Below, one piece after another: positions 19,487 through 60,637 of a stretch of DNA of 64,000 nt. The position numbers were made by a program, and so were the translations under genes. Source of the DNA: an uncultured Solirubrobacterales bacterium (GTDB lineage Bacteria; Actinomycetota; Thermoleophilia; Solirubrobacterales; 70-9); contig CAVZSH010000007.1 of the NCBI GenBank assembly GCA_963777915.1, positions 83,433 to 147,432 of the forward strand, given 5' to 3'. Numbering within the stretch: position 1 is the stretch's first letter; the number at the start of each line of letters is the position of its first letter. The notes beneath the pieces were generated by a model. The model saw only the letters and a list, made by a program, of their open reading frames with translations, ran no database searches and was not told the DNA's origin.

Positions 19487-19497
19487 GAGGCTCCGGC

Positions 19498-23275: not shown

Positions 23276-23303
23276 GGGAAGTATTCAATAGGGTGCGAGC
23301 CGG

Positions 23304-24365
23304 ATGTCTTTGAAGCTAGGACTCAACCTCGGCTACTGGGGGATCGGCCCTGCCGGAGAGGACGCCGTCGATCTGGTCAAGGCCGCCGAGGGCGCCGGCT
23401 TTGAGTCTGTATGGGTGGCCGAGTCATACGGATCTGACGTAATCAGCGTCCTCGCCTGGCTCGCCCCGCAGACCAAGACGATCAAGCTCGGCGCGGCGAT
23501 CATGCAGGTCCCCGCCCGCCCGCCCGCCGCCGCGGCGATGGCCGGCGCCACGATCGACAAGCTCTCCGACGGCCGCTTCATCTTCGGCTTCGGACCGTCG
23601 GGACCGCAGGTCTCTGAGGGCTGGTACGGGGTGCCCTACGCGAAGCCCTGGGGGCGGACCCGTGAGTACGTCGAAGTGGTGCGGGAGATCGTCTCCCGCG
23701 AGGGGCCGCTGGAGCACCAGGGCGAGCACTACCAGCTGCCCCTGCCCGGAGGCGAGGGCAAGGCGCTGAAGCTCAACTTCCACCCACTGCGCAACGGCAT
23801 CCCCGTCTTCCTCGGCGCGATCGGGCGTAAATCTGTCGAGCTGGCTGCCGAGATCGCCGACGGCTGGATCCCGATCTTCTTCAGCGTCGATGCCTTTGAG
23901 CAGACCTGGGGCGAGCACCTGCAGGCAGGCTTCGCCAAAGGCGGGCGGCAGCGCTCAGACCTTGAGGTCTCCCCGTCGCTTCAGGTCGCGATCGACGGCG
24001 ACCAGGAGGCGGCGAAGAGCGTCGTCAAGGCGGGCCTCGTCCTCTACTTCGGCGGCATGGGCAGCCGCAAGACCAACTTCTACGTCGACCTCGCCCACCG
24101 CTTCGGCTTCGGCGAGGTAGCCGACGAGGTGCAGCGACGCTTCCAGGAGGGCGACCGGGCCGGCGCCTTTGAGGCGATGCCCGACGAGATCGTCGAGGCG
24201 ACCTCGCTGGTCGGCAGCGAGGAAGAGGTGGCGGAGCGGATCGAGCGATTCCGCGGCGCCGGCATCGACCGGCTGATCGTCTCGCCGGTCCACGTCGAGC
24301 GTGGCGAGCAGCTGCACACGATCGAGCGCCTGGCGGCGTTGACCGGCGTCTCGACGCCGGTCTGA
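23304..24365 (+). CDS. LLM-class F420-dependent oxidoreductase
   Basis: Luciferase-like TIM-barrel pattern: LGYWGIGP..., FESVWVAESYGSD, GRFIFGFGPSGPQVSEGW. Confidence 0.75.
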   Translation: MSLKLGLNLGYWGIGPAGEDAVDLVKAAEGAGFESVWVAESYGSDVISVLAWLAPQTKTIKLGAAIMQVPARPPAAAAMAGATIDKLSDGRFIFGFGPSGPQVSEGWYGVPYAKPWGRTREYVEVVREIVSREGPLEHQGEHYQLPLPGGEGKALKLNFHPLRNGIPVFLGAIGRKSVELAAEIADGWIPIFFSVDAFEQTWGEHLQAGFAKGGRQRSDLEVSPSLQVAIDGDQEAAKSVVKAGLVLYFGGMGSRKTNFYVDLAHRFGFGEVADEVQRRFQEGDRAGAFEAMPDEIVEATSLVGSEEEVAERIERFRGAGIDRLIVSPVHVERGEQLHTIERLAALTGVSTPV

Positions 24366-24394
24366 GCGGTTGCCATAGGCTCTCGCGGCTTTCG

Positions 24395-25513
24395 ATGAAG
24401 ATCGGAGTTCCGAAAGAGACCGTCGAGGGGGAGCGCCGGGTCGCGCTGGTCCCTGACGTAGTCAAGTCGTTGAAGCGCAACGAGCACGTCGACGTCGTGG
24501 TCGAGTCCGGCGCCGGGGTGGCCGCCGGTCATCCCGACTCCCACTACACCGAGGCCGGGGCGGCGCTCGCCGAGGCCGCCGCTGCCTGGGGCGCTGATCT
24601 AGTTCTTCGAGTCGCCGTCCCGTCCACCGAGGAGATCGGCAAGCTCAGCCCCAACCAGATCCTGATCGGCCACCTCGCTCCCTGGACCTCGGCCGAGACA
24701 AACCGGGCGCTCGCCGAGGCCGGCTTGACCAGCTTTGCGATGGAGGCGATCCCGCGCACCACCCGCGCCCAGGCGATGGACGCGCTCTCCTCGCAGGCCT
24801 CCGCCGCCGGCTACGCCGCGACCCTGATCGCCGTGCGAGAGTCGGGCCGCTTCTTCGGGATGATGACCACCGCAGCGGGCACCGTCCCGCCGGCCAAGGT
24901 CCTCGTCCTCGGCGCCGGCGTAGCCGGCCTGCAGGCGGTCGCCACCGCCAAGCGGCTGGGGGCGATCGTCACCGGCTTTGACATCCGTCGCGCCGCCTGG
25001 GAGCAGATCGCCTCGCTCGGCGGCCGCCCGCTTGAGCTCGACTTCATCCCCGACGCCGAGGGCGAGGGCGGCTACGCCCGCCCGCTCACCGAGGAGGAGA
25101 ACCAGCAGGTCCGCGAGGCGCTTGGTGAGAACGCCGCCAAGCAGGACGTGATCCTCACCACCGCGGCGATCCCCGGCCGCCCGGCGCCGCTGTTGATCAC
25201 CGCCGCGGCGGTGGGGGCGATGCAGCCCGGTTCGGTGATCGTCGACGTCGCCGCCGAGACCGGCGGCAACTGCGAGCTGACCCGGGTCGGGGAGACGGTG
25301 CTCGAAAACGGGGTGAGGGTGCTCGGCCCGCGCAACCTGGCGAGCGAGATGCCGGCACCGGCCTCCCAGCTCTACGCGAAGAACCTGGAGAACCTGCTCG
25401 GCCTGCTGATCACAGAGGAGGGCCAGGTCAAGGTCGACTTCGAGGACGACATCCTCGCCGCGGCCTGCATCACCCGTGATGGGCAGATCCGCAACGAGAG
25501 GGCGGCGAAATGA
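24395..25513 (+). CDS. pntAA: NAD(P) transhydrogenase subunit alpha part 1
   Basis: AlaDH/PNT fold with MKIGVPKE and VLVLGAGVAGLQAVATAKRLGA. Confidence 0.9.
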   Translation: MKIGVPKETVEGERRVALVPDVVKSLKRNEHVDVVVESGAGVAAGHPDSHYTEAGAALAEAAAAWGADLVLRVAVPSTEEIGKLSPNQILIGHLAPWTSAETNRALAEAGLTSFAMEAIPRTTRAQAMDALSSQASAAGYAATLIAVRESGRFFGMMTTAAGTVPPAKVLVLGAGVAGLQAVATAKRLGAIVTGFDIRRAAWEQIASLGGRPLELDFIPDAEGEGGYARPLTEEENQQVREALGENAAKQDVILTTAAIPGRPAPLLITAAAVGAMQPGSVIVDVAAETGGNCELTRVGETVLENGVRVLGPRNLASEMPAPASQLYAKNLENLLGLLITEEGQVKVDFEDDILAAACITRDGQIRNERAAK

Positions 25514-25824
25514 CCCTGATGGCCGAGATCACGATCTTCGTGCTTGCCGCCTTCGTCGGCTTCGAGGTGATCTCGAAGGTGCCGACCACCCTGCACACGC
25601 CGCTGATGTCGCAGACCAACGCGATCCACGGGATCGTGATGCTGGGTGGGCTGATCGTCGTCGGCTACGCCAACGACCCGCTCGAGTACGTGATCGGCAC
25701 GATCGCGATCGCCTTCGGCACGATCAACATCGTCGGCGGTTTCCTGGTCACCGACCGGATGCTCGGCATGTTTGCCAAGAAGCCGAAGCCGAAGGACGAT
25801 GCCGACCCGAAAGGCGAGCGGTGA
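25510..25824 (+). CDS. pntAB: NAD(P) transhydrogenase subunit alpha part 2 (membrane)
   Basis: 104-aa three-TM ORF, overlapped by 4 nt with both flanking pnt genes. Confidence 0.85.
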   Translation: MTLMAEITIFVLAAFVGFEVISKVPTTLHTPLMSQTNAIHGIVMLGGLIVVGYANDPLEYVIGTIAIAFGTINIVGGFLVTDRMLGMFAKKPKPKDDADPKGER

Positions 25825-27236
25825 TCGAGATCGCCCTGCTGAAGCCGGGCGGCAGCGCCGCCACGGCGCTCTACATCGTCGCCTTCTCGATGTTCATCCT
25901 CGGGGTAAAACGCGGCACCCACCCGACTACCGCCAAACAGGGGAACATGGTCGCCGCCGCCGGCATGCTGATCGCCGTCGCGACGACGCTTCTCCTCAAC
26001 GGGATCGGCAACTGGGGCCTGATCGTGGCGGGCATCGCGATCGGCGCGACGATCGGCGTCGTCGCCTCGATCCGCGTCCAGATGACCGCGATGCCGCAGA
26101 TGGTCGCCCTCTACAACGGGGTCGGCGGCGGCGCGGTCGCGCTGATCGCCTGGTCTGAGATCCGCCACGGCATCTCGCTCGGCGAGACGATCCCGCTCGA
26201 AACGCTGATCCCCACCCTGTTTGCCGCGGTGGTCGGCTCGGTCTCCTTCTGGGGCTCGAGCATCGCCTTCGGCAAGTTGCAGGAAGTGATCCCGACCCGG
26301 CCGATGAAGATCCCCGGCCAGCAGGTGATCAACGCCCTGCTGCTGGCCGGCATCCTTGCCGCCTGCGTCGACATCGCCGCCAACAACAGCGACGCCTCCC
26401 AGGGCCTCTTCATCGCGGTCCTCTGCGCCGCGGCCCTGCTCGGCATCCTCGTCGTGCTGCCGATCGGCGGCGCCGACATGCCGGTTGTGATCTCGCTGCT
26501 TAACGCTTTCACCGGGCTCTCGGCCGCGGCGGCCGGCTTCGCGCTGGATAACGTCGCGCTGATCGTCGCCGGCACCCTGGTCGGCTCCTCGGGAACGATC
26601 CTGACGATGGAGATGGCGACCGCGATGAACCGCTCGGTCGCCAATGTCCTCTTTGCGGGCTTTGGTGGGGCCCCGGCCGCCGGCCCGGGAACGGTCGAGG
26701 AGCGCCCGGTCACCTCGATCGGCGCCGAGGACGCGGCGATCAAGCTCGCTTACGCCGACTCGGTCGTGATCGTGCCCGGTTACGGACTCGCAGTCGCCCA
26801 GGCCCAGCATGCGGTCAAGGAGATGGCAGGCGAGCTGGAAAAGCGCGGGGTCACGGTCAGCTACGCGATCCACCCGGTCGCCGGGCGCATGCCGGGGCAC
26901 ATGAACGTGCTGCTGGCCGAGGCCGACGTGCCCTACGAGCAGCTGAAGGAGATGGACGAGATCAACCCCGAGATGCCGCGCACCGATGTCGCCGTGGTGA
27001 TCGGTGCCAACGACGTCACCAACCCCGCCGCCAAGAACGACCCCAACAGCCCGATCGCCGGGATGCCGATCATCGAAGTCGATCAGGCCCAGCAGGCGAT
27101 CGTGATCAAGCGCTCGCTCAGCCCCGGCTTCGCCGGCATCGACAACGACCTCTTTTATGAGCCCAACACCTCGATGCTGTTCGGCGACGCCAAGAAAGCT
27201 GCGGCGGAAATCGCCGCCGAGATCCAGAACCTCTGA
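25821..27236 (+). CDS. pntB: NAD(P) transhydrogenase subunit beta
   Basis: GTG 25821 overlaps the pntAB stop (GTGA). C-terminal dIII motifs GYGLAVAQAQH, YAIHPVAGRMPGHMNVLLAEA and GANDVTNPAA are present. Confidence 0.9.
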   Translation: MIEIALLKPGGSAATALYIVAFSMFILGVKRGTHPTTAKQGNMVAAAGMLIAVATTLLLNGIGNWGLIVAGIAIGATIGVVASIRVQMTAMPQMVALYNGVGGGAVALIAWSEIRHGISLGETIPLETLIPTLFAAVVGSVSFWGSSIAFGKLQEVIPTRPMKIPGQQVINALLLAGILAACVDIAANNSDASQGLFIAVLCAAALLGILVVLPIGGADMPVVISLLNAFTGLSAAAAGFALDNVALIVAGTLVGSSGTILTMEMATAMNRSVANVLFAGFGGAPAAGPGTVEERPVTSIGAEDAAIKLAYADSVVIVPGYGLAVAQAQHAVKEMAGELEKRGVTVSYAIHPVAGRMPGHMNVLLAEADVPYEQLKEMDEINPEMPRTDVAVVIGANDVTNPAAKNDPNSPIAGMPIIEVDQAQQAIVIKRSLSPGFAGIDNDLFYEPNTSMLFGDAKKAAAEIAAEIQNL

Positions 27237-28099: not shown

Positions 28100-28212
28100 A
28101 GAGCGAGCAGCCTACCGGCGGCCCCGCGCCTCCCGACGGCGCGCTCGTTCGGCCTCCTTCACTTCTCACACCGAAGGTTCGACCCCGCTAGGGTCTTCGG
28201 ATCGCCACCGAG

Positions 28213-29418
28213 GTGACGGCAAGCTCCAAGGAAGCGATTGCGCTGCGCCTCGCCGAGGCGCGGGAGCGGACCCTGGAGCTGATCGAGTCGCTCGATGACG
28301 CTCAGCTCAACCGCGTCTACTCGCCGATCCTCAGCCCGCTGGCCTGGGACCTCGGCCACATCGCCAACTTCGAGGAGCTCTGGCTGGTGCAGACTGTCGG
28401 TCACCGCGAGCCGCTGCACGGCGAACTCGGCCACTTCTACGACGCGATCGAGAATCCGCGGCGTAGCCGCGGCGAGCTGCCGATCCTGCGCGACGCCGAG
28501 CTGCGCGCCTACCTGGCCGAGGTGCGTGAGCGCACCCTGGAGGTGCTCGCCGGCGTCGATCTGAGCGAGGAAGCCGCCGACCCCCTGCTCCGCGGCGGCT
28601 TCGTCTACGAGATGCTGCTCGCCCACGAGCACCAGCACAACGAGACGATGCTGCAGCTGCTGCAGATGGTCGAGCGCTATGAGCCGGCGCGGCGAGATCC
28701 CGGCCCGGCGGCTGAGCCGGCCCCAGACGGCCCGGAGATGGTCGCGGTAGCCGGAGGAGAGTGGGCGATCGGCACCTCGCCCGAGGGCTTTGCCTATGAC
28801 AACGAGCGCCCCCGCCACACGGTCGAGCTGGGCGCCTTTGAGATCGACCGCACGCCGGTCACAAACGGCGCCTACGCAGAGTTTGTCGAGGCGGGTGGCG
28901 CCGAGCCACCGATGTACTGGGAGCGCGACGGGGAGGGGGGCTGGGTCCGCACCGCGATGGGCCACTGCGAGCCGCTTGAGCTCGCCCACCCGGTCATCCA
29001 TGTCTCCTGGCATGAGGCCGACGCCTTCGCCCGCTGGGCCGCCAAGCGGCTGCCCAGCGAGCAGGAGTGGGAGGCGGCCTGCGCCGGAGCGAGCGCCGAG
29101 CGCGCCAACCTCGACCAGCTCGGCTTCGGCACCGCCCCCGCCGGCGCCTATGCCGACGGGGCAGCCGCCAGCGGCGCGGTGCAGATGCTCGGCGACGTCT
29201 GGGAGTGGACCGCCTCGGACTTCCTCGCCTATCCCGACTTTGAGCCCTTCCCCTACCCTGAGTACTCCCAGGTCTTCTTCGGCGATGCTCACAAGGTGCT
29301 GCGCGGCGGCGCCTGGGCTACCCGGCGCAACACGATCCGCCCCAGTTTCCGCAACTGGGACCTTCCCCAACGCCGCCAGATCTTCGCCGGCTTTCGCTGC
29401 GCGCGGGACCTGGACTGA
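28213..29418 (+). CDS. egtB: ergothioneine biosynthesis sulfoxide synthase EgtB
   Basis: DinB-like N-terminus (LAWDLGHIANFEELW, HEHQHNETM) and FGE-sulfatase C-terminus (RGGAWATRRNTIRPSFRNW, FAGFRCARD). Confidence 0.85.
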   Translation: MTASSKEAIALRLAEARERTLELIESLDDAQLNRVYSPILSPLAWDLGHIANFEELWLVQTVGHREPLHGELGHFYDAIENPRRSRGELPILRDAELRAYLAEVRERTLEVLAGVDLSEEAADPLLRGGFVYEMLLAHEHQHNETMLQLLQMVERYEPARRDPGPAAEPAPDGPEMVAVAGGEWAIGTSPEGFAYDNERPRHTVELGAFEIDRTPVTNGAYAEFVEAGGAEPPMYWERDGEGGWVRTAMGHCEPLELAHPVIHVSWHEADAFARWAAKRLPSEQEWEAACAGASAERANLDQLGFGTAPAGAYADGAAASGAVQMLGDVWEWTASDFLAYPDFEPFPYPEYSQVFFGDAHKVLRGGAWATRRNTIRPSFRNWDLPQRRQIFAGFRCARDLD

Positions 29419-29459
29419 TCCGAGCCGAGACCGAGCGCGCAAGGACTGAGAGGACCGAC

Positions 29460-30455
29460 TTGAGCTCTGAGACCACCGCAGATCAGATCGCGATCGAGGT
29501 CCACCTCGCCGCCGACGGCGGCGCGGCGATGGAGCACGACATCCGCGCTGGCCTCTCCTCTGAGCCCAAGGAGCTGGCCCCGAAGTACTTCTACGACGAG
29601 CGCGGCTCTCAGCTGTTTGAGCAGATCACCGAGCTGCCCGAGTACTACCCGACCCGCGCCGAGCGCGCGATCCTCGCCGAGCGCTCCGCCGAGATCCTCG
29701 CCGCCGCCGGCGAACCGGGGGTGCTCGTCGAGTTGGGCTCGGGCTCGGCGGCGAAGACTCGCCACCTGTTGAGCGCGATGCGCGACGCCGGCTGCCTGGA
29801 GACCTACGTCCCGGTCGACATCTCCGAGGAGATCACCCACGAGACGGCGGAGAGCCTGGTCGAGGAGTACCCCGGCCTCGCCGTCCGCGGCCTTGTCTGC
29901 GACTTCGAGCACGACCTGGAGCGCATCCCGAACGACGCCGGCGGCAGGCTGATTGCCTTTCTCGGCGGGACGATCGGCAACCTCTACCCACAGGCACGCC
30001 GCGACTTCCTCGCCCGACTGGCGGGCCTGCTCGGCCCCGAGGACCGCCTCCTGTTGGGGACCGACCTGGTCAAGGAGCCCGCCCGCCTCGAGGCCGCCTA
30101 CGACGACGCCGGCGGCGTCACCGCCGAGTTCAACAAGAACGTCTTGGCGGTCCTAAACCGCGAGCTGGGAGCCGACTTCGACCTGGCCGCCTTCGAGCAC
30201 GTCGCCCGCTATGACGGCGCCGAGGCGCGGATGGACATCCGCTTGCGCTCGCTCGCCGAGCAGACGGTCCGCGTCGAGGGCCTCGACCTGGAGGTGGCCT
30301 TCGCCAGCGGCGAGGAGATGCGTACCGAGATCTCGGCCAAGTTCACCCGCGAGCGGCTGGAGCGGGTCTATGAGGAAGCGGGCCTTGAGCTGGCCGGCTG
30401 GTTCACCGATCCCGCCGGCGACTACGCCCTAAGCCTTGCCCAGCGCGCCGATTAG
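29460..30455 (+). CDS. egtD: L-histidine N-alpha-methyltransferase EgtD
   Basis: Contains PKYFYDERGSQLFEQITELPEYYPTRAE and ELGSGSAAKT. TTG start. Confidence 0.85.
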   Translation: MSSETTADQIAIEVHLAADGGAAMEHDIRAGLSSEPKELAPKYFYDERGSQLFEQITELPEYYPTRAERAILAERSAEILAAAGEPGVLVELGSGSAAKTRHLLSAMRDAGCLETYVPVDISEEITHETAESLVEEYPGLAVRGLVCDFEHDLERIPNDAGGRLIAFLGGTIGNLYPQARRDFLARLAGLLGPEDRLLLGTDLVKEPARLEAAYDDAGGVTAEFNKNVLAVLNRELGADFDLAAFEHVARYDGAEARMDIRLRSLAEQTVRVEGLDLEVAFASGEEMRTEISAKFTRERLERVYEEAGLELAGWFTDPAGDYALSLAQRAD

Positions 30456-40569: not shown

Positions 40570-41157
40570 ATGGAACCGGATGGCCTGGATTCTGGTCTCT
40601 TTGCGGGCGAAGACGATCTCCGGCTGCTCCGCGGGCTCCCTGACGAATGCATAGATCTGGTCTACCTTGACCCGCCAGTTTTTTCCAGCTGGGTCCATGA
40701 GGGCAGTTGGCAAGATCGAGCTGAACTGGGACCGGTCGAGGATCGCTGGCAGGGTGGGGTCCGGAACTACCTCGACTGGATCACCGCTCCGCTGGACGAC
40801 CTGCATCGCATCCTCACACCCACTGGTGCCCTTTTCCTCGTCTGCGATCAAGCAGTGGGTCTTTACATTAGGCTCATACTCGACGAACTGTTTAGTCGCC
40901 AGGACCCGCAAAATCGCATGGTCTGGTGGAAGGCCGATTCCGGACCCGAGCGCCACCACGTTTTCTACTACCGCAGATCGGACTTTACCGCCGCTCGCCA
41001 CGGTCGCTATTACACCGTAATCCACCGCGAGGGCAAAGCCGATTCGTCTCTGGTGGCATTCAGCTTTGTGCAGGGACGGCGGAGGCGGCAGCGCTCCAAC
41101 CACCTGCCTGGTTGCAATCGACCAGCCATCCGTTCGAGCCAGTCTGCCCAGCCCTAA
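40570..41157 (+). pseudogene. truncated N4/N6 DNA methyltransferase (beta-class) fragment
   Basis: Contains LRLLRGLPDECIDLVYLDPPVFSS (DPPY-type motif IV reading DPPV), DRWQGGVRNYLDWITAPLDDLHRILTPTGALFLVCD and NRMVWWK. The C-terminal AdoMet-binding FxGxG region is absent, because the ORF ends 36 nt before the next gene. Confidence 0.55.
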
Positions 41158-41192
41158 AGGAGCAAGCGCCGCTCGCCGATGCCTGGTGCTAT

Positions 41193-43124
41193 ATGAGCTC
41201 CGAGCGATCCCGATCGGCAATGAATCGGATAGGAGTACCAGCGCCGCCGTCCTTTGCGGTGACGCAGCACGAATGGGAGCTCCATCGCCTCGGCGAAGAG
41301 TTAAAGGGGCGCGCCGAGGACGTCCTGGAGCTGACGCTTGAGCGGACCACCGGTCCGGAGCACGAGGTCGACTCTTTGGTCCAGGACAGCTTCGAACGGA
41401 TCAGTCGCAACTCAACGATCGCTGTGGCTCGCTGGATCGCGGGGGAGAGCATGGAGGTGGCGATCGAGGCTGGACGAGAAACCTGGGAGATTTTTGGCGA
41501 GCTGGCAGTGCACCGGGCGGCCTCCCTTAACGAGGTGACCTGGCGCTGCTTTTGGTGGCGTAACGCGATGGCCGAGGTGATCAAGGAGAGTGCCTCCAAG
41601 CTGGAAATCCCGTCCGAAGCGCTGGTCGACGCACTCAACATCTTGCAGCTGAGTCTAGAGTTCAGCCTACTGCGGATGTGTGAGTGCTTTGAGAGCGAGC
41701 GCCAGCGCACCGACGAAAAACTCGCCCGGCGTGAGGACGAGCTCTCCTTCCTGGCGACACACGACCCGTTGACCGGTCTTCCCAACCGCACCTTGATCCT
41801 CGACCGGGTTGAGCAAATCCTCGCTCGCTCACGTCGCAAGCAATCCCCGGTGGCGGCGCTGTTCATCGACCTCGACAACTTCAAGGATATAAACGACACC
41901 CTCGGTCATGGCGTCGGAGATGAACTGCTGGAGGCCGTCGCGGCTCGGCTTAACGGCGTAATCCGCGACGCCGATGCGCTTGGACGTCTAGGTGGCGATG
42001 AGTTCGTCGTGATCTCAGAAGAGATCTCCCTGGCAGCCGGCCCTGAGCTCGTCGCTGAGCGACTGCTTGAAGCGCTCGAGCAGCCGTTCAAGCTCGGAGA
42101 GGGCAGAGAGACCCGCGTGACCGTAAGGGCGAGTATCGGGATCGCGATCGGCGAGCGAACCTCGGCCGAGGAGCTCCTGCGCCAAGCCGACATCGCGATG
42201 TACCGGGCAAAGTGGGACGGAAAGCATCGCTACGTCGTGTTCGAGACCGGAATGCAGGACTTCATCCAAAACCGCATGGAACTCGAGATGGACCTGCTCG
42301 AAGCTCTGGAGAAGGACGAGTTCTTTCTCGCCTATCAGCCGACGATTGACCTAAGTGATATGAGTCCCACCGGTGTGGAGGCCCTGATCCGCTGGGATCA
42401 TCCCAAGCGGGGGGTGATTCAACCAGAATGCTTCATCCCGCTGCTCGAGGAGTCAGGCCTGATCACGGAGATCGGCAAGTGGGTTCTGAACCAAGCCTGC
42501 GGTCAGTGTGCCGAATGGAGGAAGGCCGGATATCCGATCGGCATTGCAGTCAACGTCTCCGCACGCCAGCTCGACAGCGATCAGATCACGACCGACATCA
42601 AAGAGGCGCTCGATGAAAGCGGTCTGGAGCCCACAGAGCTGACCATCGAGGTTACCGAGACAGAGCTGATGCGAAATTTCGAGGAGACCTCGCGACGCCT
42701 CGGTGCGGTCAAGGCGCTTGGCGTGCGGATAGCGATCGATGATTTCGGGACGGGATATTCATCATTAGCCCACCTGCAGCGGTTCCCTGTGGATGCATTG
42801 AAGATCGACCAGTCCTTCATCTCAGGGTTGAGCCGCTATCAGGAGGGAGAGACTTTAATCCGCACCCTGGTGCAGTTAGGAAAGTCCCTTTCGATCCAGA
42901 CCATCGCCGAGGGTATCGAGCAACATCGCGAGCTCTCCCTGCTCAAGGACGAGGACTGCGACAACGGGCAAGGTTTCCTCTTCGCCCGGCCTCTTGACGT
43001 AGCCGCCACCGAGGCGTTCCTGCGGGACTGGCTCGACCGCTCGAATCCTACCTTCGCCGAAGCGCCAAAGGACACAAGTCAAGCAGTCCCTACCACGGTC
43101 GACGCCTCTCCAGGGAAGATCTGA
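41193..43124 (+). CDS. GGDEF-EAL protein (diguanylate cyclase/phosphodiesterase) with an uncharacterised helical N-terminal domain
   Basis: Contains HDPLTGLPNR, DLDNFKDINDTLGHGVGD, I-site RDAD followed by RLGGDEFVV, then EALIRW, DDFGTGYSSL and QGFLFARP. Confidence 0.9.
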   Translation: MSSERSRSAMNRIGVPAPPSFAVTQHEWELHRLGEELKGRAEDVLELTLERTTGPEHEVDSLVQDSFERISRNSTIAVARWIAGESMEVAIEAGRETWEIFGELAVHRAASLNEVTWRCFWWRNAMAEVIKESASKLEIPSEALVDALNILQLSLEFSLLRMCECFESERQRTDEKLARREDELSFLATHDPLTGLPNRTLILDRVEQILARSRRKQSPVAALFIDLDNFKDINDTLGHGVGDELLEAVAARLNGVIRDADALGRLGGDEFVVISEEISLAAGPELVAERLLEALEQPFKLGEGRETRVTVRASIGIAIGERTSAEELLRQADIAMYRAKWDGKHRYVVFETGMQDFIQNRMELEMDLLEALEKDEFFLAYQPTIDLSDMSPTGVEALIRWDHPKRGVIQPECFIPLLEESGLITEIGKWVLNQACGQCAEWRKAGYPIGIAVNVSARQLDSDQITTDIKEALDESGLEPTELTIEVTETELMRNFEETSRRLGAVKALGVRIAIDDFGTGYSSLAHLQRFPVDALKIDQSFISGLSRYQEGETLIRTLVQLGKSLSIQTIAEGIEQHRELSLLKDEDCDNGQGFLFARPLDVAATEAFLRDWLDRSNPTFAEAPKDTSQAVPTTVDASPGKI

Positions 43125-48559: not shown

Positions 48560-48604
48560 GAGCGCCACTTAAGGCATCGATCGTCCCGGCCGATAGAGAT
48601 CGGG

Positions 48605-49720
48605 ATGTTCGACATTGACTCAGCTTTGAGCACGCTCGTCGAGCGGCAGGGGTCCGACCTCCACGTCAAAGTCTCCTCGCCGCCGATCCTTCGCGTCCAC
48701 GGTCAGCTCTCCTACCTTGAGGGCCACGCGCCGCTCACCGCCGAAGACACGGAGAAGGCATTCCACGACATCGCCGAGGTGCGCTCCCTGACCGAGTTCG
48801 AGGAGGACGGGGAGGCCGATTATTCATACGCGATCCCCGGCGTCGCTCGCTTTCGCGTCAATACCTTCAAACAGCGTGGTTCGATCTCGATCGTCTGCCG
48901 CGCCATCCCCTTCGAGATTCGCTCGATCGACCAGCTCGGCCTACCTGAGGGGTCCGCTCGCTGGCCAAGGAACCGCGGGGGATCATTCTCGTAACCGGCA
49001 CCACCGGTTCGGGCAAGTCGACGACGCTGGCTGCGATGATCGACCACGTCAATCGACCCGGGCCCGGCACATCGTGACGCTCGAGGATCCGATTGAGTAC
49101 CTGCACCCCGACAAACTCTCGATCATCAACCAGCGCGAGGTAGGGGCTGACACCAAGAGCTTTGGTCGGGCGATGAGGCGGGTCCTGCGCCAGGACCCCG
49201 ATGTGATCTTAATCGGGGAGATGCGAGACGAGGAGACGGTGCGTACGGCGCTCTCGGCCGCGGAGACCGGCCACCTCGTCCTCTCAACGGTCCACACCCT
49301 CGATGCGACCGAGACGATCAACCGGATCATCGACTTCTTCCCGCCACACCTCCAACAGCAGGCGAGGGTGATGCTCTCCGCGACGCTTAAGGGGGCTATC
49401 GCCCAGCGTCTGGTTCCCGACCTTAGCGGCACGGCAGAGTCGCCGCGGCCGAGGTGATGGTAGTTACAGGGCGCATCCAGGACCTGATCCTCAACCCGGA
49501 TGAAACCGGCAAGATCACTGAGGTCATCGCCGAGGGGGAGTACTACGGGATGCGGACCTTCGACCAGTCGCTGCTCGGCTATGTGATGGAGGGTCGCATC
49601 TCCGAGCAGGTGGCGTTGGAGTACGCGTCCAGCCCCCACGATTTCAGGCTGATGCTCGCGGCTGGAGGGCAGCGGGCGAGCGGTATCGAGCAGCTCGACG
49701 CGGAGCCGGTGCCCCAGTGA
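48605..49720 (+). pseudogene. pilT: type IV pilus retraction ATPase PilT, copy 1, interrupted by 3 single-nt frameshifts (about 48950, 49053 and 49430)
   Basis: Contains [88 protein letters not shown] and EVMVVTGRIQDLI. The pieces sit in frames 2, 1, 0 and 2. Confidence 0.85.
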
Positions 49721-50374
49721 GGGAGAAGCTGAACGACAATCCGATCGCCCAGGTCGCCCTGGTAGGTGTTCTCGTAGTTGCGGCTGCGTTTCTACTGCTC
49801 AAAGGGGGTGGCGAAAGCAGCGAAGGATCCAAGGCGACGACTTCGACCAGGCCGAAGCGAGCTCCGGCGCAGGGTCCGCGGGCGAAGATTCTTCCAGCGC
49901 ATCCGCTGGGGGAGAAGCGTCCAGTGTCTCCAGCGGCGAAGAAGGCTCGAGCGCCACGGGTGGTGTAGCGGGCAGCGTAAGCCAAGCCGCTTCCCTACGA
50001 TCCCAGTCTCGGTGCCGGCGCCGCCGTACCGCGGTTTCGGGCGCCTATGCAGCAGATAAGACCATTGTCCTGCTCATCGTTCATCGCGGTGGAATCGAAG
50101 ATCGGATCGTCACCAGGGCGGTAGATCGGCTGAAAAATGACTCCGGGCTCGCCGTCTTTGTCATCCCGGCCAAGCAGATCGCCCGCTATGCGGCGATCAC
50201 GGTTGGAGTCGAAGTCGAGCAGGTGCCGGCGCTGGTTGTGATGCGTCCACGCCGCCTAGCGCCGGTACTCCCCAAGCCTCGAGTGACCTGGCTTCCCAGA
50301 CCCCCCAAAGCGTCGTGCAGGCGGTTCACGGCGCTACCTACAAGGGCCCCGAAATCGCCTATCACCCCAATTGA
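49717..50374 (+). pseudogene. membrane-anchored protein with acidic Ser/Gly linker and alpha/beta C-terminal domain (hypothetical); at least 2 frameshifts
   Basis: The GTG overlaps the pilT stop (GTGA). The pieces are: an N-terminal TM segment (IAQVALVGVLVVAAAFLLL); DDFDQAEASSGAGSAGEDSSSASAGGEASSVSSGEEGSS; KTIVLLIVHRGGIEDRIVTRAVDRLKNDSGLAVFVIPAKQIARYAAITVGVEVEQVPALVVM; and the tail SQTPQSVVQAVHGATYKGPEIAYHPN* in a third frame. Confidence 0.45.
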
Positions 50375-50383
50375 ACTGGTCAC

Positions 50384-52208
<1,825 letters not shown>

Positions 52209-52222
<14 letters not shown>

Positions 52223-53359
52223 CTTTGACTTCGCCGAGGTGGCTGCGCCGCATGGTGGAGGCGCGGGCCTCCGACGTCCACCTCACCGCTGGGTTTCCCG
52301 CCGGCGATCCGCGACCGGGGCAGGATCATCCCCGATGGAGGGCTTTCCGGTGCTCGGTGGGGCAGCAGACCCGGGAAGTCGTTTACGGCATCCTCAACGA
52401 TGACCAGCGCAAGCGCTTCGAGAACGATAAAGCAGCTCGATTTCGCCTACGCGATCCCCAGCGTTGCCCGTTTCCGCGTCAACTGCTTCTTTCAGCGTTG
52501 GTTCGGTCAGCGCCGCTTTTCGCCTGGTTCCGCAGGAGATCCCTGGCTCTCGACACGCTCGGGGTGCCGCAGGTGCTGCGCGAACTGACCCAAAAGCCGC
52601 GCGGCTTTGTTTTGGTGACCGGCCCCACCGGCAGGGGTAAGTCGACGACGCTAGCGGCGATGATCGACGTGATCAACGCGAGCGCGAGGATCACATCCTG
52701 ACGCTCGAGGACCCGATCGAGTTCCTGCACCTCTCACAAACGCGCCCTCGTCAACCAGCGAGAGGTCGGCTCCGACGCGCCGGACTTCGCACTAGGACTT
52801 CGGGGCTGCGCTGCGCCAGGACCCGGACGTGATCCTGGTCGGAGAGATGCGCGACCTGGAGACCATATCCCCGGCGCTGACCGCCGCCGAGACCGGACAC
52901 CTGTGTTTTCGCGACCCTGCACACCAGTCGAGCGCCCAGACGGTCGACCGGTCATTGACGTCTTTCCCATCTCAGCAGCAAGGTCAGGTGCGCACACAGC
53001 TCTCGATCGCCCTGCAGGGGATCGTCACCCAGCAACTCTCGCCGACCGCCGACGGGAGGGGACGGGTCGTCGCCTGTGAGGTACTGATCCCGACCCCGGC
53101 GTTTTCGAACCTGATCCGCGAGGGCAAGACCCACCAGATCTATGCCGCGGTGCAGACTTCCGGTGCGGTTGGGATGCAGACAATGGATGCTGACTTGGCT
53201 CGCCTGGTGCGCTCGGGGAAGATCACCCGCGCACTTGCCGAGCAGCGTGCTTCGGTGCCTGAGGAGCTGAAGCTGCATGCTGGTTGGCGGCGCGGCGCAG
53301 ATGCCGGGCGGCGGTCTGGCGGGTCAGAGCCTGGCGCCTCCGGCGCCCGTCTACACTAA
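52209..53359 (+). pseudogene. pilT: PilT-type retraction ATPase, copy 2, about 14 frame changes
   Basis: Contains [132 protein letters not shown] and IIDVFP, followed by an intact C-terminal third (track ORF 52829..53359). Confidence 0.8.
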
Positions 53360-53373
53360 GGAAGCCTAGGACG

Positions 53374-54619
53374 ATGGCCGGCGCCACGACGTTTGCCTTC
53401 CGCGCCATGGACCTCGCCGGGGTCGCCTCGTCTGGTGAGCTGGAGGCTGAATCAAAGGCCCAGGTCTCCGAGCAGATCCGCCAGCGTGGCCTGATCGTGC
53501 TCGACGTTTCCGAGAAGCATGAGCCTTTTAAGGTCGAGGACCTTTTCAAGCGCTGGCAGGCGGTCGACATGCGCGAGCTGGCAGTATTCTCGCGCCAATT
53601 CGCGACCCTTGTCGCCTCCGGGATGCCAATGCTTCGCACCCTGCAAACGCTCGAAGAGCAGACTCAGGATGAAGAGATCCGCGACGCGGTTGCCAGCTTG
53701 CGGGGGGATGTCGCGGCGGGCAGCTCACTCGAGCAGGCGATGGAGCGGCACCCGAAGGTCTTCGATCGCCTGTTCCGGGCAATGGTGCGCTCGGGTGAGC
53801 AGTCGGGCCGCCTTGAGGAGGCGCTCGACCGGATCGCCTACCAGGTGGAGAAGGCCGATTCCCTGCGCCGGCAGATTAAATCGGCTCTGATGTATCCGGC
53901 ACTTGTCTTCACCTTCGCGGTAATAGTGCTGGTTGCGATAGTCGTCATCGTCATCCCCGTCTTCGTCAAGATCTTCCAAGAACTCGCCGCCGAAAACCCA
54001 GAAGAAGCTACCGGGTTGCCGGCGCCCACCCAGCTTTGCGTCGACGTCTCCAACGCGCTGACCGGCTACTGGTACCTGATCATCCCAGGTCTGGCGCTCG
54101 CCATCTTCGGCTTTATCAAATGGAAGAAGACCGATGGCGGCCATGCACAGTGGGACCGCCTCAAGCTGAAGATTCCATTCAAAATCGGCGACGTGATCCA
54201 AAAAGTCTCGCTGGCCCGCTGGTCACGCACCTTTGCGGGCTCGGTCTCCTCAGGGGTGCCGATGCTGCAGTCGATCAAATTGACCGGACAGACGGCCGGC
54301 AACATCGTGGTCGAGCAGGCGATGGAAGACGTCTACGCCTCGGTCAAGCGTGGCGGCTCGCTTGCCGGACCAATTGAGAAAAACCCGATCTTTCCCTCGA
54401 TGGTTGGTCACATGATCTCGGTGGGCGAGGAATCTGGCCAGCTGAGAGCACATGCTGAGCAAGATCGCCGACTTCTATGAAGCCGAGGTCGATGCCAAGA
54501 TCAAGGCTCTGACCGCTTTGATCGAGCCGCTGATGATCGTCTTCGTAGGCGGCATCGTCGGGTTCATCGTCATCTCGATGTACTTGCCGCTGTTTAGTAT
54601 CTACGAACACATCCGTTAA
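53374..54619 (+). pseudogene. pilC: type IV pilus platform protein PilC (GspF family) with one frameshift near 54445
   Basis: Two T2SSF repeats (FSRQFATLVASGMPML...GEQSGRLEE and WSRTFAGSVSSGVPML...GEESGQL). The last 55 aa (MLSKIADFYEAEVDAKIKALTALIEPLMIVFVGGIVGFIVISMYLPLFSIYEHIR*) are in the next frame. Confidence 0.85.
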
Positions 54620-54665
54620 GCTGCGTTTTGTCTGGAGTGACGTAAGACGCTGAGCCGCGCTTGAG

Positions 54666-54688
54666 CTGGTTCGCCTGAGCCGAACCAG
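54666..54688 (+). terminator. weak hairpin after pilC
   Basis: CTGGTTCG-cctgagc-CGAACCAG (8-bp stem), with no U-tract. Confidence 0.25.
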
Positions 54689-54885
54689 GTTGCGATTTGG
54701 ACGTTCGTTCGGCCAGCTGACGGCGGCCGTCCACTGCCGGATCGATTGTCCGTACTTTTTGGTATCAGTGAGGCGAGTTCTCGGCTCCCACATACGGAAA
54801 AATCGGTCTCTTTCAAAATCGGGCTAAATTCACTAAAGGTGGCCTGGTAGGGGTCGATTAGTGACCTGTAATGAAACTGCCAGTG

Positions 54886-54973
54886 CCTCGGTTCAAAAGG
54901 CAAACCCGTCGTCAGGCGGGGGCGCACAGCTCTCGGGGGCTCCTAGCTAGGAGCCGCCGGGCTACCACCGGGG
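54886..54973 (+). promoter_or_regulatory. candidate c-di-GMP-I (GEMM-I-like) riboswitch aptamer in the pilA1 leader
   Basis: AAAAGGCAAACC-CGTC-GTCA-GGCG-GGGGCGCACAGC has the same segment lengths as the Vc2 core GGCAAACC-AUUC-GAAA-GAGU-GGGACGCAAAGC, with a compensated 4-bp helix. A second 13-bp hairpin lies at 54932-54961. The closing helix pairs CCTCGGT (54886-92) with ACCGGGG (54967-73). This was a hand alignment only, and there are two mismatches in the most conserved block. Confidence 0.35.
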
Positions 54974-55041
54974 TCAGAGGACACCACGTGGCCATACGCG
55001 ACGGGGCTCTGGCGCAAACGATAGGTCCATAGGAGGTACCT

Positions 55042-55479
55042 ATGTTTCTCCAGAATCTCCGGGCCAAGGTTGGTGCCCGGCTAAATGGCGAGAGCGAGGC
55101 CGGCTTTACGCTGATCGAGCTTCTCGTTGTGATGCTGATTATGGGTATCCTGGCCGCGATCGCGCTGCCGGCGTTCTTCAATCAGCGTGAAAAGGCAAAC
55201 GACGCAAAGGCCAAGGAGTACGCCCATTCCGCCCAGGTCGCGATAGAGACATTTGCGACCGAACACGAAGGCGAATACACTGCGGCCACCATAGGTGCTC
55301 TGCAGACAATCGAGCCGACTCTGAAAAGCGCGACCATCGCACTCTCAGGGCTAGGTAAAACGACATACACAATCACATCTGAATCAAGCACTGGAGACAA
55401 ATTCCAGATTGTCAACAATGCAGGCGAACTCTCGTTCCCCTGTACGCCGAAAGAACATGGCGGGCTGCCCCGCATCTGA
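55042..55479 (+). CDS. pilA: type IV pilin (prepilin with class III signal peptide), paralogue 1; the 3' end is probably frameshifted near 55460
   Basis: AGGAGG lies 5 nt upstream of the ATG. The leader ends ...GESEAG followed by [25 protein letters not shown] (G-1, F+1, E+5). The +1 frame after ...FPCTPKEH reads [11 protein letters not shown] (stop 55496-55498), matching the tail of pilA2. Confidence 0.85.
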
Positions 55480-55552
55480 AAGCTGGGCCCACGGTTAATC
55501 AGCTCTACTGAGCATCGTTTGGCCCTAACAGGTCATGCGTGATCGCATCTTT

Positions 55553-55579
55553 GAGGGGCGGGCCTTGCGCCCGCCCCTC
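55553..55579 (+). terminator. 11-bp GC hairpin after pilA1
   Basis: GAGGGGCGGGC-cttgc-GCCCGCCCCTC is a perfect stem located 74 nt after the annotated pilA1 stop. Confidence 0.5.
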
Positions 55580-55624
55580 ATGCGTTCGTCCAGATTTCAT
55601 AAGTCGCCTCAAAAGCTGGCGAAG

Positions 55625-55650
55625 AAAAGTCGAAACCAAAAGTCGAAACC
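55625..55650 (+). repeat. direct tandem 13-mer AAAAGTCGAAACC x2 upstream of the Ig-repeat protein gene
   Basis: Two exact adjacent copies lie 30 nt upstream of ATG 55680. Confidence 0.8.
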
Positions 55651-55679
55651 ATTAGCTGGATAGCCCTCACTTGAGACTC

Positions 55680-57065
55680 ATGGCAGCCATCTCAAAACAA
55701 GCGCCGGTGCGGACCTTCGGCAAAACGAGCCGCCTTGGGCTGCTCACTCTGGGGTTCCTCGCCTCACTAGCTGTGTTAGCGTCCTCGGCGCGGGCCAATC
55801 CGGCGCCTCCAGCGCTGACTTTTACGTTTCCCGCGTCTCCTGGCACCTCCCTGACACCTCGGATCCAGGGCGAGGCAGAAGGAGTAATTACCGCGGCTGT
55901 TGGACCGAGGTTGATCGAGCGCTCCGACGGTGCGACGACGATGGCGAGCGAACCACCCGGCATGGTCACGATCTACGCAAACGAATCCAATTGCAGCGAT
56001 TCCGAAGCGATCGCCGCAGAAGGTAGCGCGGCCGAACTTGAAGGCGCTGGGATCGAAGTGAAAGTCGAGCCCGACTCGATCACGACCTTCTATGCCTCGC
56101 TTACCAAGGAAAGTGGCTCTTCACCATGCTCCCGCCAAGGTATTAAGTACCGTCAGGTGACTACTCCCCCCGGACCGCCTACCTTCAGCTCGATCAACCC
56201 AGCCTCACCGGCCAACGACAATACCCCGCACCTGATCGGCAACGGAGAATCTGAATCGGTCGTCTCGATCTACACGACCGCGGATTGCTCGGGTCAGCCA
56301 GTCGGAGTCGGATCGGCGGCCACCTTCGCGGCCGAAGGCATTCAGGTCTCGGTACCCGACAATTCTTTGACCACATTTTACGCAAGGGCGACGCTGGCAG
56401 AAACTGTGTCCTCGCCCTGCTCGGAGTCATCGATCGAATACCAGGATGTAGCTCCGGTGGAAGAAGAAGAAGAGCAGGGCCAGGGCGGATCTCCGGGCTC
56501 CGGCGGAACGGTACGACCGCCTGCCCCCGAACTGCATACTGACCCCAGCGGGCTTTCCAACGATAGTGCGGTTCTGGTGACGGGCTCAGCCCCCGATGCG
56601 ATGTCGGTTGAAATTTTCGAGAACGCCGCTTGTACGGGTGCCCCAGTGACCAACGGATCGGCAGCCCAGTTCGCTTCTGGCCTGCGGGTCCAGGTCGCCG
56701 TCAATACCTCGACGAGCTTTTACGGTGACTCACTGGGGGCAGACGGCGGCCGCTCGACGTGCTCGGCACCCGTCGTATACAGGGAGGACTCGACTCCGCC
56801 CCACACCAGGTTCACGATGGCGCCTGGCGCAGTGACCCACAAACGCAAGGCGGTGTTCCGCTTCATCGATACAACCGAGGATCCTTTTGGGGTCACTTTC
56901 CTCTGCAAAGTCAATCGGGGAAAGTGGAGGTCATGCCACACGCCGCTTCGTCTGCACCATCTCCACTTCAGGTCCTATCTCGTGCATGTGAAAGGGATCG
57001 ACTCGGTCGGCAATGCGGAGGTTAGAGGGGCCAGTCGCCGCTTCAGGGTGGTCCACCGCAGTTGA
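55680..57065 (+). CDS. secreted protein with three Cys-pair Ig-like repeats and a C-terminal FxC..(w)..C / GN-type Ig domain
   Basis: Signal peptide LGLLTLGFLASLAVLASSARA. Three modules of about 95 aa share ..SP.N..P...G.......V.IY....C.G.....GSAA.F...GI.V.V...S.T.FYA......G.SS.CS...I.Y. The C-terminus reads VFRFIDTTEDPFGVTFLCKVNRGKWRSCHTP...VHVKGIDSVGNAE. Confidence 0.7.
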   Translation: MAAISKQAPVRTFGKTSRLGLLTLGFLASLAVLASSARANPAPPALTFTFPASPGTSLTPRIQGEAEGVITAAVGPRLIERSDGATTMASEPPGMVTIYANESNCSDSEAIAAEGSAAELEGAGIEVKVEPDSITTFYASLTKESGSSPCSRQGIKYRQVTTPPGPPTFSSINPASPANDNTPHLIGNGESESVVSIYTTADCSGQPVGVGSAATFAAEGIQVSVPDNSLTTFYARATLAETVSSPCSESSIEYQDVAPVEEEEEQGQGGSPGSGGTVRPPAPELHTDPSGLSNDSAVLVTGSAPDAMSVEIFENAACTGAPVTNGSAAQFASGLRVQVAVNTSTSFYGDSLGADGGRSTCSAPVVYREDSTPPHTRFTMAPGAVTHKRKAVFRFIDTTEDPFGVTFLCKVNRGKWRSCHTPLRLHHLHFRSYLVHVKGIDSVGNAEVRGASRRFRVVHRS

Positions 57066-58137: not shown

Positions 58138-59110
58138 ATGAGATTGATCGGTTTGGACGTGCGCCGCGACTTCTACGAGATCGAGATCGCCGGGGCGGTA
58201 GCGCTCGCTCGGCGGGTCGCATTGCCACCGACCCCGAAGAGCTGGAGCTCGTCGCCCAGAGTCTCGGGAATGAAGACCGGGCGCCCTACGTGCTGGAAAT
58301 CGTGATTACCAATTCCGCCCAGGTGCGGTGATCATCCACGCAAAGGAGAAGTCCACAAGCTCGACGCCTCGAAGCTTGCCGAGCTCTTGTCCGCCGGCCT
58401 GTACCCGAGGTCTGGATTCCCGACCAGGCCACTCGGGCACTGCGGCGACCCATCATCCCTGCCCCGCAGCCTGGTCGCCGAACACGCGATGGAAGAACGA
58501 GGTCCACGCGATCCTTCACCGCAACCTGATCCGCGCGGCCCCGGCCACTGACCTGTTCGGCCAGCCGGTCGTGTTTGGCTCACCCGGCTCGCGCAGCCGG
58601 TGGACGAGGCAAGAGACGCTCGATGCCTGCCTGCCGGCTCGATTTCGGCGTTTCGGAGTTGAAGTGCGCAGAGCAGGAAATCGCCAGGGCGGTGGTCCCC
58701 TCGCAGGAGATCCGTCACCGATGACGATCCCTGGTATCGATGTAATCACAGCGGCGACCCTGGTAGCGGCGATCGGCGACATCTCGCGCTTTCCGAGTAC
58801 TCGCCACATGGTTGGCTATCGAGGCCTTTGCCCTCGTTCGCGTCAAACCGGGTCAAAGGCATCCCAGCACGGAGGGACCTCCAGGATGGATCTCGAGTTG
58901 CCCGCCACGTTCTGGGTCACGCAGACTGGTCAGCAGCTCGCACTCCAGGTCCGCTTCACGGCTTCGCGGTGCGGGTAGCGGCACGGCGCACCAAGCAGAT
59001 GGCAACTATTACGGTCGCCCGCAAGCACTAGCGATGCTTGGCACCGACTCACCCGCGAAGAGGATGATGCCTTTAAGCGTCCGCTGACGGTGCCCGCAAA
59101 CTGCGAGCGA
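58138..59110 (+). mobile_element. IS110-family transposase remnant (many frameshifts/stops)
   Basis: Fragments spread across frames: MRLIGLDVRRDF, ..PEELELVAQSLGNEDRA, VWIPDQATRALRR, KNEVHAILHRNLI, MTIPGIDVITAATLVAAIGDISRFPSTRHMVGY.GL.PR..QSG, VARHVLG...AARTPGPLHGF..RVAARR.KQMATITVARK. The 3' end is approximate, and I identified no terminal repeats. Confidence 0.6.
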
Positions 59111-59763: not shown

Positions 59764-60213
59764 TCAGCCGCCTTTCCAGCTGCCGCTGTGGGGGCAAGCG
59801 CCCTGTTCAGATGGCGAGCACGGATAGGTCAATGCGCCTTCCTTGGAGCGGTCGATTCCGAATGAGTGCCCAGTGGTTTCCGCTTCGACCGTGATTTCGT
59901 AGCCTTCACCTGCTTCGGTGGGAGTGACCGTGAATTTGGGGCCACCGCTCAGGCTCGGCTCGATTTGTTTGACGGCCGCTTGATTACATTTGGCGTAGCT
60001 TCCGTCGTTATCTGTAAAGCAGGACTCCACCGAGATCTGGACAGTTTGCGCCGTTTCCTCGGCCTTGGCGTCATCGGCCTTTTGCTTTTGATTGAAAAAT
60101 GATGGTAGAGCGATCGAGGCCAGCACTGCGATAATAACCATCACGACGAGAAGCTCAATCAGCGTAAAACCGGCCTCGTCACTGTCGTTCGGCTGGGTCG
60201 GAAGCCGCTGCAT
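59764..60213 (-). CDS. pilA: type IV pilin, paralogue 2
   Basis: MQRLPTQPNDSDEAG followed by [38 protein letters not shown]. It has two Cys pairs (SCFTDNDGSYAKC and PCSPSEQGAC). The track ORF extends to 60366; ATG 60213 (or 60243) gives a normal leader length. Confidence 0.8.
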   Translation of the reverse strand: MQRLPTQPNDSDEAGFTLIELLVVMVIIAVLASIALPSFFNQKQKADDAKAEETAQTVQISVESCFTDNDGSYAKCNQAAVKQIEPSLSGGPKFTVTPTEAGEGYEITVEAETTGHSFGIDRSKEGALTYPCSPSEQGACPHSGSWKGG

Positions 60214-60637
60214 GGACGTACGGAACTGTAAGGCTCTATGCATGCCATATCCGCGGCGCGGACAGCCGAAGAGCGTCTCCTTTTGACCTTGGGAACCGTG
60301 ACCGACCTGCTCTTCGGCATGATGGTGGGGCCGTCCGCTAGGCCGCAGGGCTCGTAGACTCATCACTTGGGCTTAATCGACTCAGAGGCCACGATCTTTA
60401 ACTCTTCCTACCCAACCCTCGGCTGACTGAGGTCTCATGATCACCAGCCAAGACCTTGGTCTAGCTCACAAAGAAAGTGAAATGGACAGGCGGCACCCAC
60501 TGGCTGCCTACATCGAGTTATGGGCTGCCATGGGTACACCGACGCCCGCTCCACAGGCGGGAGATCCCGAGGCGAACCGGGGCAAGCCGAGGCGGGGAAT
60601 ATTGGCAGGCCCGCGATGAGACTCTGCTCAGTTAGTA

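Follow-up and report, generated by a model that had tools for sequence, protein, structure and literature searches.

The window analysed here is a stretch of 64,000 nucleotides (nt) from contig CAVZSH010000007.1 of an uncultured Solirubrobacterales bacterium. Its subject is the leader of a type IV pilin gene, in which a probable class I cyclic di-GMP (c-di-GMP-I, or GEMM-I) riboswitch aptamer lies 73 nt upstream of the gene and on the same strand. The pilin start codon is at 55042, 422 nt past the pilC stop at 54619, in agreement with the leader of about 420 nt given in the initial annotation. The cluster runs pilB, pilT and pilC before the aptamer, followed beyond the pilin gene by pilD, a second pilin gene on the minus strand, pilO, pilN and pilM. 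The aptamer features and the pilin gene are as follows.

54885 to 54974, plus strand: putative c-di-GMP-I (GEMM-I) aptamer including helix P1; 40.0 bits on RF01051 and 87.6 bits on R1, a covariance model built here
54885 to 54893, plus strand: P1 5' strand, GCCUCGGUU, pairing with 54966-54974; the apex U at 54893 is mismatched with C 54966
54899, plus strand: equivalent of G20, at the end of junction J1/2, placed by the cmscan alignment
54900 to 54925, plus strand: P2, in which 54900-01 pair with 54924-25 and 54905-10 with 54915-20, with an AAA internal loop and the loop GUCA at 54911-14
54926 to 54928, plus strand: junction J2/3, A-C-A, with the A47 equivalent at 54926, C at the A48 position 54927 and the A49 equivalent at 54928
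54928 to 54963, plus strand: P3 hairpin, lacking a tetraloop receptor; its distal part is the palindrome at 54938-54955, and helix 5 carries six compensatory pairs
54965, plus strand: equivalent of C92, in junction J3/1 after an A; in Vc2, C92 is the Watson-Crick partner of the second guanine of the ligand
54966 to 54974, plus strand: P1 3' strand, CACCGGGGU, pairing with 54885-54893
55042 to 55479, plus strand: type IV pilin gene, 145 amino acids, with a class III signal peptide and an N_methyl domain (PF07963, E 9e-8)

The whole window was scanned against Rfam 15 at gathering thresholds using cmscan. RF01051 (c-di-GMP-I) matched 54889-54969 of the plus strand over its full length (model positions 1-87) with 40.0 bits, a gathering score of 35 and an E-value of 2.4e-4. 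It was the sole match above threshold in the 64 kb. The initial annotation had proposed a GEMM-I fold in the pilin leader and had named RF01051 and RF01786 (c-di-GMP-II) for the search; the first family thus scored above its gathering score, and RF01786 had no match in 54560-55120 at E-values up to 10. A permissive scan of the same interval gave 41.4 bits for RF03167 (c-di-GMP-I-GGC), the GGC variant of the same clan, which is below its gathering score of 59; that variant has G at the equivalent of position 47, where the window has A (54926). The threshold of RF03167 was reached by one relative, L032 (60.7 bits). The only other Rfam family to appear in 54560-55120 was dauA, on the minus strand and well under threshold (E 2.5).

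The architecture is that of Vc2 of Vibrio cholerae and of RF01051: a three-helix junction in which P1 closes two hairpins, with a P2 of 2 + 6 base pairs (bp) interrupted by a 3-nt AAA internal loop, then P3 and an ACC junction before the P1 3' strand. In the unconstrained minimum free energy fold of 54880-55060, P1, the P2 stem and P3 all form (z = -2.84). The sequence statements of the initial annotation were accurate throughout: 54895-54930 reads AAAAGGCAAACCCGTCGTCAGGCGGGGGCGCACAGC, the palindrome GGCTCCTAGCTAGGAGCC is perfect at 54938-54955 within its hairpin, 54886-92 (CCUCGGU) pairs with 54967-73 (ACCGGGG), and CUCCUA and UAGGAG are present at 54940-45 and 55030-35. Two helix lengths were revised. 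The 7-bp pairing of P1 stands, within a full clade P1 of 9 bp (54885-93/54966-74), and the P2 helix, which had been given 4 bp, is present as a stem of 6 bp. The ligand-contacting nucleotides are kept at G20 (54899 G) and A47 (54926 A), as had been claimed, and also at C92 (54965 C). In Vc2, G20 contacts one guanine of the ligand (PMC5888326). As in the class (PMC1950547), the element is placed for 5' regulation of a surface or motility gene, here a type IV pilin gene on the same strand, and 46 relatives are alike in this.

Relatives were collected as the best 80 of 245 PilC-anchored loci. All 80 belong to metagenome-assembled genomes of Solirubrobacterales (Thermoleophilia, Actinomycetota), with 71-90% PilC identity, and they place the host in that group. 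Copies of the aptamer were searched for by a simple pattern, then by BLAST and then by the covariance model R1. The aptamer was found in 49 of the 80 loci as 51 copies, two each in L065 and L073, and in 46 relatives it lies about 205 nt before the pilin motif; counts by position given below refer to 52 clade copies. The second copy in L065 (L065:6947-7036) is degenerate, with A in place of C22 and changes in the P1 5' strand. Since no plus-strand gene follows it, it looks like a partial duplication. When 13 relatives were scanned with Rfam, 12 copies exceeded a threshold, 11 of them on RF01051 at 40.6-57.2 bits and the twelfth, that of L032, on RF03167.

The covariation analysis of relatives' pilin leaders that the initial annotation had called for supports the fold. 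In a model-guided alignment of 53 distinct sequences, standard pairs fill 96.8% of cells and 12 of the 31 pairs show double-sided, compensatory change. None of 500 shuffles reached any of the measures, and partners slid along the alignment paired at only 33-50%. This alignment was fitted to the structure and is therefore biased towards it; the compensatory changes of P2 and P3 are plain in a raw MAFFT alignment too.

On the Rfam score above gathering, the covariation in orthologous leaders, the retention of G20, A47 and C92 and the pil context, 54885-54974 of the plus strand is probably a class I c-di-GMP riboswitch aptamer of the receptor-less kind, in the leader of a major type IVa pilin gene. 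Taken jointly, its identity as an aptamer and its role as a regulator in cis are on these sequence-based grounds highly probable. The clade's pilin leader carried such an element ancestrally, and the window copy is its local representative.

The window copy departs from its clade at three positions that are otherwise near-invariant there: the P1 apex, the P2 tetraloop and A48.

G20: G in 50 of 52 clade copies and A in 2 (both in L073); G in the window
A47: A in 50 of 52 and G in 2 (both in L073); A in the window
A48: A in 51 of 52; C in the window, the only such copy
C92: C in 52 of 52; C in the window
Tetraloop third base: G in 49 of 52 (GYGA); C in the window (GUCA)
P1 apex, 5' base: G in 50 of 52, forming a G-C pair in those 50, and U in 2; U in the window, shared with L001
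Position 43: G in 49 of 52; G in the window

The initial annotation had noted two substitutions in the conserved block GACGCAAAGC. They are of different standing: the change of A43 to G occurs throughout the clade (49 of 52 copies), whereas only the window copy, among those of the clade, has A48 changed to C. The replacement of GAC by GGC in the P2 internal loop is thus a clade trait, by which the clade differs from Vc2, and that of AAA by ACA in J2/3 is private to the window. The suggested assignment to the receptor-less subtype fits, because the relatives combine GYGA loops with the lack of a receptor. In the survey of Weinberg et al. (2007), GYRA loops were almost never accompanied by a receptor (PMC1950547).

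Four features weigh against a sound window copy. First, the window and L001 have the lowest RF01051 scores above the gathering score (40.0 and 40.6 bits, with relatives up to 57.2). Second, the window has C at A48, which is among the four interhelical nucleotides that are key for ligand recognition (PMC3764141); J2/3 is AAA in all but 2 of 322 GEMMs (Weinberg et al., 2007; PMC1950547). Third, the P2 loop GUCA is not of the GNRA type, and this loop is in nearly all cases a GNRA tetraloop in the same survey. Fourth, the P1 apex is mismatched, and the corresponding G14-C93 pair stacks on the ligand (PMC3764141). Both J2/3 and the loop are conserved in the class and not strictly defining.

These deviations at near-invariant positions are what would be expected if the window copy were a decaying, non-functional relic, its fold recognisable and its binding or switching impaired, with the pilin made constitutively or not at all. 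The outright loss of the aptamer in about 25 relatives and the state of the adjoining genes point the same way: the pilus ATPase and platform genes at 48600-54620 (pilT, pilB, pilT, pilC) are frameshifted in the window, and pilB, pilT and pilC are intact in L001, the closest relative. However, G20, A47, C92, all helices and both strands of the alternative helices described below are intact. Overlapping same-strand reading frames with high G+C content at third codon positions also occur elsewhere in the window (e.g. 18251-20412, 23292-27233 and 28192-30452). Such window-wide frameshift signs suggest indel errors, perhaps from a long-read assembly, and fit these better than decay of the pilin locus alone. 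They also make assembly errors a live caveat for single-base details. A metagenome scan for GCACAGC gave mostly chance matches, yet at least 9 distinct aptamers (10 loci, two of which, L083 and L113, carry identical sequence) passed Rfam thresholds at 43-71 bits. C at A48 is therefore tolerated in the family, and the position is conserved, not defining. The exact GUCA + ACA combination of the window had no match in the metagenome scan, so the window deviations are without independent confirmation. On this evidence a relic is unlikely.

A shift of ligand specificity away from c-di-GMP would be another way to read the C at A48. It would apply more clearly to L073, in which a variant aptamer stands before each of two tandem pilin genes (L073:6644-6737 and L073:7993-8089). 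The c-AMP-GMP riboswitches (GEMM-Ib) are marked by A at position 20, and the specificity change involves this position. The window has G there (54899), unlike GEMM-Ib, and within the clade A is found only in the L073 relatives. Both L073 copies have A at G20, G at A47 and a loop that is not GNRA, either AUCA or longer; they fall below the Rfam gathering score, and on the clade model they reach 75-79 bits. Their specificity may be altered, and rare variants of the class do sense c-AMP-GMP, not c-di-GMP (PMC7266159). In the window, however, G20, A47 and C92 are kept, the A48 to C change is a single one in one assembly of imperfect quality, and its combination with GUCA is on no metagenome contig. 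We consider this reading very improbable.

We return to the probable c-di-GMP-I aptamer and to how it might act on the pilin gene. No terminator-like site was found on the plus strand in 54975-55042, between the aptamer and the ATG, and intrinsic terminator control was rejected on this ground. A search for a sigma-70 promoter in 54400-55700 found none. The 3' flank of the aptamer is almost invariant in 49 leaders, and RNAalifold applied to these leaders returned not the aptamer but an alternative fold, helices A and B. A hairpin at the Shine-Dalgarno sequence (SD) and start codon lies downstream of them.

54879 to 54890, plus strand: helix A 5' strand, GCCAG-U-GCCUCG, overlapping the P1 5' strand; 100% paired in the 49 leaders
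55002 to 55013, plus strand: helix A 3' strand, CGGGGC-U-CUGGC, invariant in the 49 leaders; its UCUGG (55008-12) can alternatively pair with CCAGA (55050-54)
54960 to 54993, plus strand: helix B, GGCUAC 54960-65 with GUGGCC 54988-93 and GGGUC 54971-75 with GAC.CC 54980-85; contains the invariant spacer GACACCACGUGG
55016 to 55047, plus strand: SD/start-codon hairpin, AAAC-G-AUAGGUCC with GG-U-ACCUAU-GUUU; the SD AGGAGG (55031-36) lies in the loop and stem top, and AUG 55042-44 is paired

Helices A and B sequester both P1 strands, C92 and the 3' end of P3, and are exclusive with P1 and the base of P3. They are 98.8% paired in the 49 leaders, compared with 33-45% in slid controls. Within helix B only the 4-nt loop (54976-79) varies among relatives, and in the P1 5' strand the only variation is between C and U facing G, a change that suits pairing in P1 as well as in helix A. 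The SD/AUG hairpin is conserved in aptamer-bearing and aptamer-less groups alike, with a compensatory indel between the window type AUAGG...CCUAU (AUAGGUCC...GGUACCUAU) and the majority type AUUAGG...CCUAAU (AUUAGGACC...GGUCACUAAU).

The initial annotation had proposed another switch, in which the 5' arm of P3 (CUCCUA) would pair alternatively with the SD region. The 6-nt complementarity is real in the window. This arm was nevertheless rejected as an anti-SD, for CUCC is absent in 10 of 52 copies while the SD is unchanged, and the distal P3 hairpin is closed in both modelled states; the invariant helices described above were found instead. A further helix C in the bound state (CCACGUGGC with GCGACGGGG) is plausible and was not relied on, since a 3-nt deletion disrupts it in L018, L074 and L079.

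About 25 related loci have the same pilin gene and SD/AUG hairpin and have lost the aptamer (L002, L003, L006, L010, L014, L015, L023, L031, L036, L038, L047, L049, L050, L055, L056, L059-L061, L071, L072, L077 and others). In these, helix A survives in the form of a simple hairpin that adjoins the SD/AUG hairpin and has one compensatory pair. A remnant, GGCAAACC...P2, is kept in L038 and L072. The pattern points to repeated deletion of the riboswitch. UCUGG is invariant in 49 of 49 aptamer-bearing leaders, and in 9 of the 17 aptamer-less leaders that keep helix A it is replaced by AAUGG or AACGG.

A relay can be proposed from these features. Without ligand, helices A and B would form, and the region near the ribosome-binding site (RBS) would resemble that of the aptamer-less relatives. 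On binding of c-di-GMP, P1 would form and helix A would open. The freed UCUGG (55008-12) could then pair with CCAGA (55050-54, codons 4-5), and this clamp would lengthen the hairpin in which the AUG and part of the SD are already hidden; translation initiation would drop as a result. Helix A and the SD hairpin are both present in the aptamer-less relatives, so an architecture like that of the ligand-free (apo) state must permit expression. Combined with the relay of P1 against helix A and of helix A against the clamp, this argues for an OFF switch on translation.

Energies of the apo and ligand-bound (holo) states were calculated as constrained ensembles; a nearest-neighbour model was used and the 5' end was assumed. 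In the absence of ligand the mean advantage in stability of the apo fold is 2.6 kcal/mol. Opening the region from -15 to +13 around the AUG costs a mean of 14.1 kcal/mol in holo and 11.1 in apo, and in 47 of 48 leaders the holo cost is the higher one, with a margin above 1 kcal/mol; in the window it is 18.3 kcal/mol in holo and 10.9 in apo.

Several points tell against this proposal. The holo fold of the window is modelled as slightly more stable than its apo fold even without ligand. The AUG is buried by its hairpin in both modelled states, and the equilibrium accessibility of the SD and AUG is nearly equal between them. The clamp effect of 3 kcal/mol rests on the nearest-neighbour model and the assumed 5' end. 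Helices A and B showed no compensatory changes in the 49 leaders, only invariant or one-sided positions, so that their support is conservation and not covariation. Finally, the spacer becomes single-stranded in the bound state, and an argument from ribosome standby sites would on that account predict the reverse direction.

The last point leads to a functional aptamer that switches the gene ON, or whose effect is on mRNA stability or by way of Rho and not on translation initiation; the bound state might, for example, expose the A/C-rich spacer as a ribosome standby, Rho or RNase site. The invariant spacer at 54975-55001 (…GACACCACGUGG…) would be released from helix B upon binding, and it is invariant beyond what pairing needs, its CCACGUGG palindrome included. 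The MshEN domain (PF05157) of PilB (window 50384-51432, plus strand; L001:2024-3856) may be added, since some pilus ATPases bind c-di-GMP through this fold. However, its two 24-residue motifs, judged by eye, lack what we take to be the canonical RLG...Q residues, and the domain was set aside as a clue to the direction of the switch because the motifs look degenerate. The c-di-GMP-II riboswitch of the pilin operon of Clostridioides difficile is an ON switch (PMC11477304). The helix A and SD hairpin kept in aptamer-less relatives, whose apo-like architecture must permit expression, and the higher RBS opening cost in holo in 47 of 48 leaders argue otherwise. ON switching or action through stability or Rho appears a tentative option, on the unlikely side. 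The translational OFF direction is slightly favoured under the present model; the energy model, the assumed 5' end or a standby-site effect could reverse it. A more elaborate history is doubtful and distinctly improbable: a translational OFF switch built into a pre-existing helix A hairpin and repeatedly deleted, with the pocket drifting in some lineages (C48 in the window; A20 and G47 in both L073 copies) and those variants sensing another cyclic dinucleotide or none.

A palindrome within the spacer, CCACGTGG at 54984-54991, is invariant in the 49 leaders, and its conservation exceeds the pairing needs of helix B; it may be a contact site for protein or RNA. Upstream of the aptamer, blocks at 54699-54865 are common to the relatives, aptamer-less ones included: GGACGTTCGT, the A/T-rich TTTTTGG and GGAAAAA, GCTAAA..AAAGG and GTCGATTAG. 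These blocks may serve as promoter or operator elements, and GTCGATTAG is similar to the SD hairpin's 5' strand (ACGATAGG).

Two further features of the window concern the surroundings of the pilin gene.

40926 to 43124, plus strand: gene for a GGDEF-EAL protein of 732 amino acids, 12 kb upstream of the aptamer
55553 to 55579, plus strand: hairpin past the pilin stop, 11 bp, G+C-rich and without a U tract, read from the sequence

The GGDEF-EAL protein indicates that the organism has c-di-GMP turnover enzymes. The hairpin at 55553-55579 is the probable end of the transcription unit and suggests a monocistronic pilin transcript. The second type IV pilin gene lies at 59764-60366 on the minus strand; neither Rfam nor model R1 detected an aptamer upstream of it. 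Between pilD and this gene lies an IS110-family transposase fragment (58328-58978, plus strand; PF02371, E 5e-15).

The element can be set beside several known systems. From Vc2 and RF01051 it differs in the clade-wide lack of a tetraloop receptor, with the GYGA loop of the clade and GUCA of the window, in the GGC of the P2 internal loop, and in the C at A48 and mismatched P1 apex of the window itself. A terminator overlaps P2 in 78 of 322 GEMMs (Weinberg et al., 2007; PMC1950547); the pilin leader has no terminator and instead has two invariant alternative helices and an SD/AUG hairpin. The host belongs to the Actinomycetota, a phylum missing from those listed as rich in GEMMs in 2007. The GEMM-I elements of Geobacter lie near pili assembly genes (PMC1950547) and share the aptamer class and the association with pili; those precede assembly genes, whereas the window element precedes an actinobacterial major pilin gene. 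The initial annotation had cited C. difficile as a precedent, rightly as regards control of pilin by a c-di-GMP riboswitch, although the aptamer there is of class II and not class I (PMC11477304). The switch before the pilin operon CD3513-03 is comparable in that a leader RNA of a c-di-GMP sensor class stands directly before a type IV pilin gene, in a cluster without an outer-membrane secretin gene (PMC11477304). It differs in being a transcriptional ON switch; the element here is of class I, has no terminator and is predicted to be OFF.

Nothing here is categorically new, as an annotation pipeline that runs Rfam would flag the aptamer. The class was already known near pilus genes, and knowledge of the riboswitch class itself is unchanged. 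New are the lineage, the direct association with a major type IVa pilin gene, a platform that lacks a terminator, and the recurrent loss of the aptamer. A 2019 review names Tad/Flp pili as the only ones studied in Actinobacteria, where by the same account type IVa pili were unstudied (PMC6916266). In Thermoleophilia, a group of abundant, largely uncultured soil actinobacteria, the finding would tie the production of type IVa pilin directly to c-di-GMP. The expression platform of the leader is compact, lacks a terminator and has alternative helices that are clearly defined. The clade offers a natural series for the gain, tuning and loss of a riboswitch: 49 loci have the aptamer, about 25 show a clean deletion of it, and in 2 to 3 its ligand pocket is altered.

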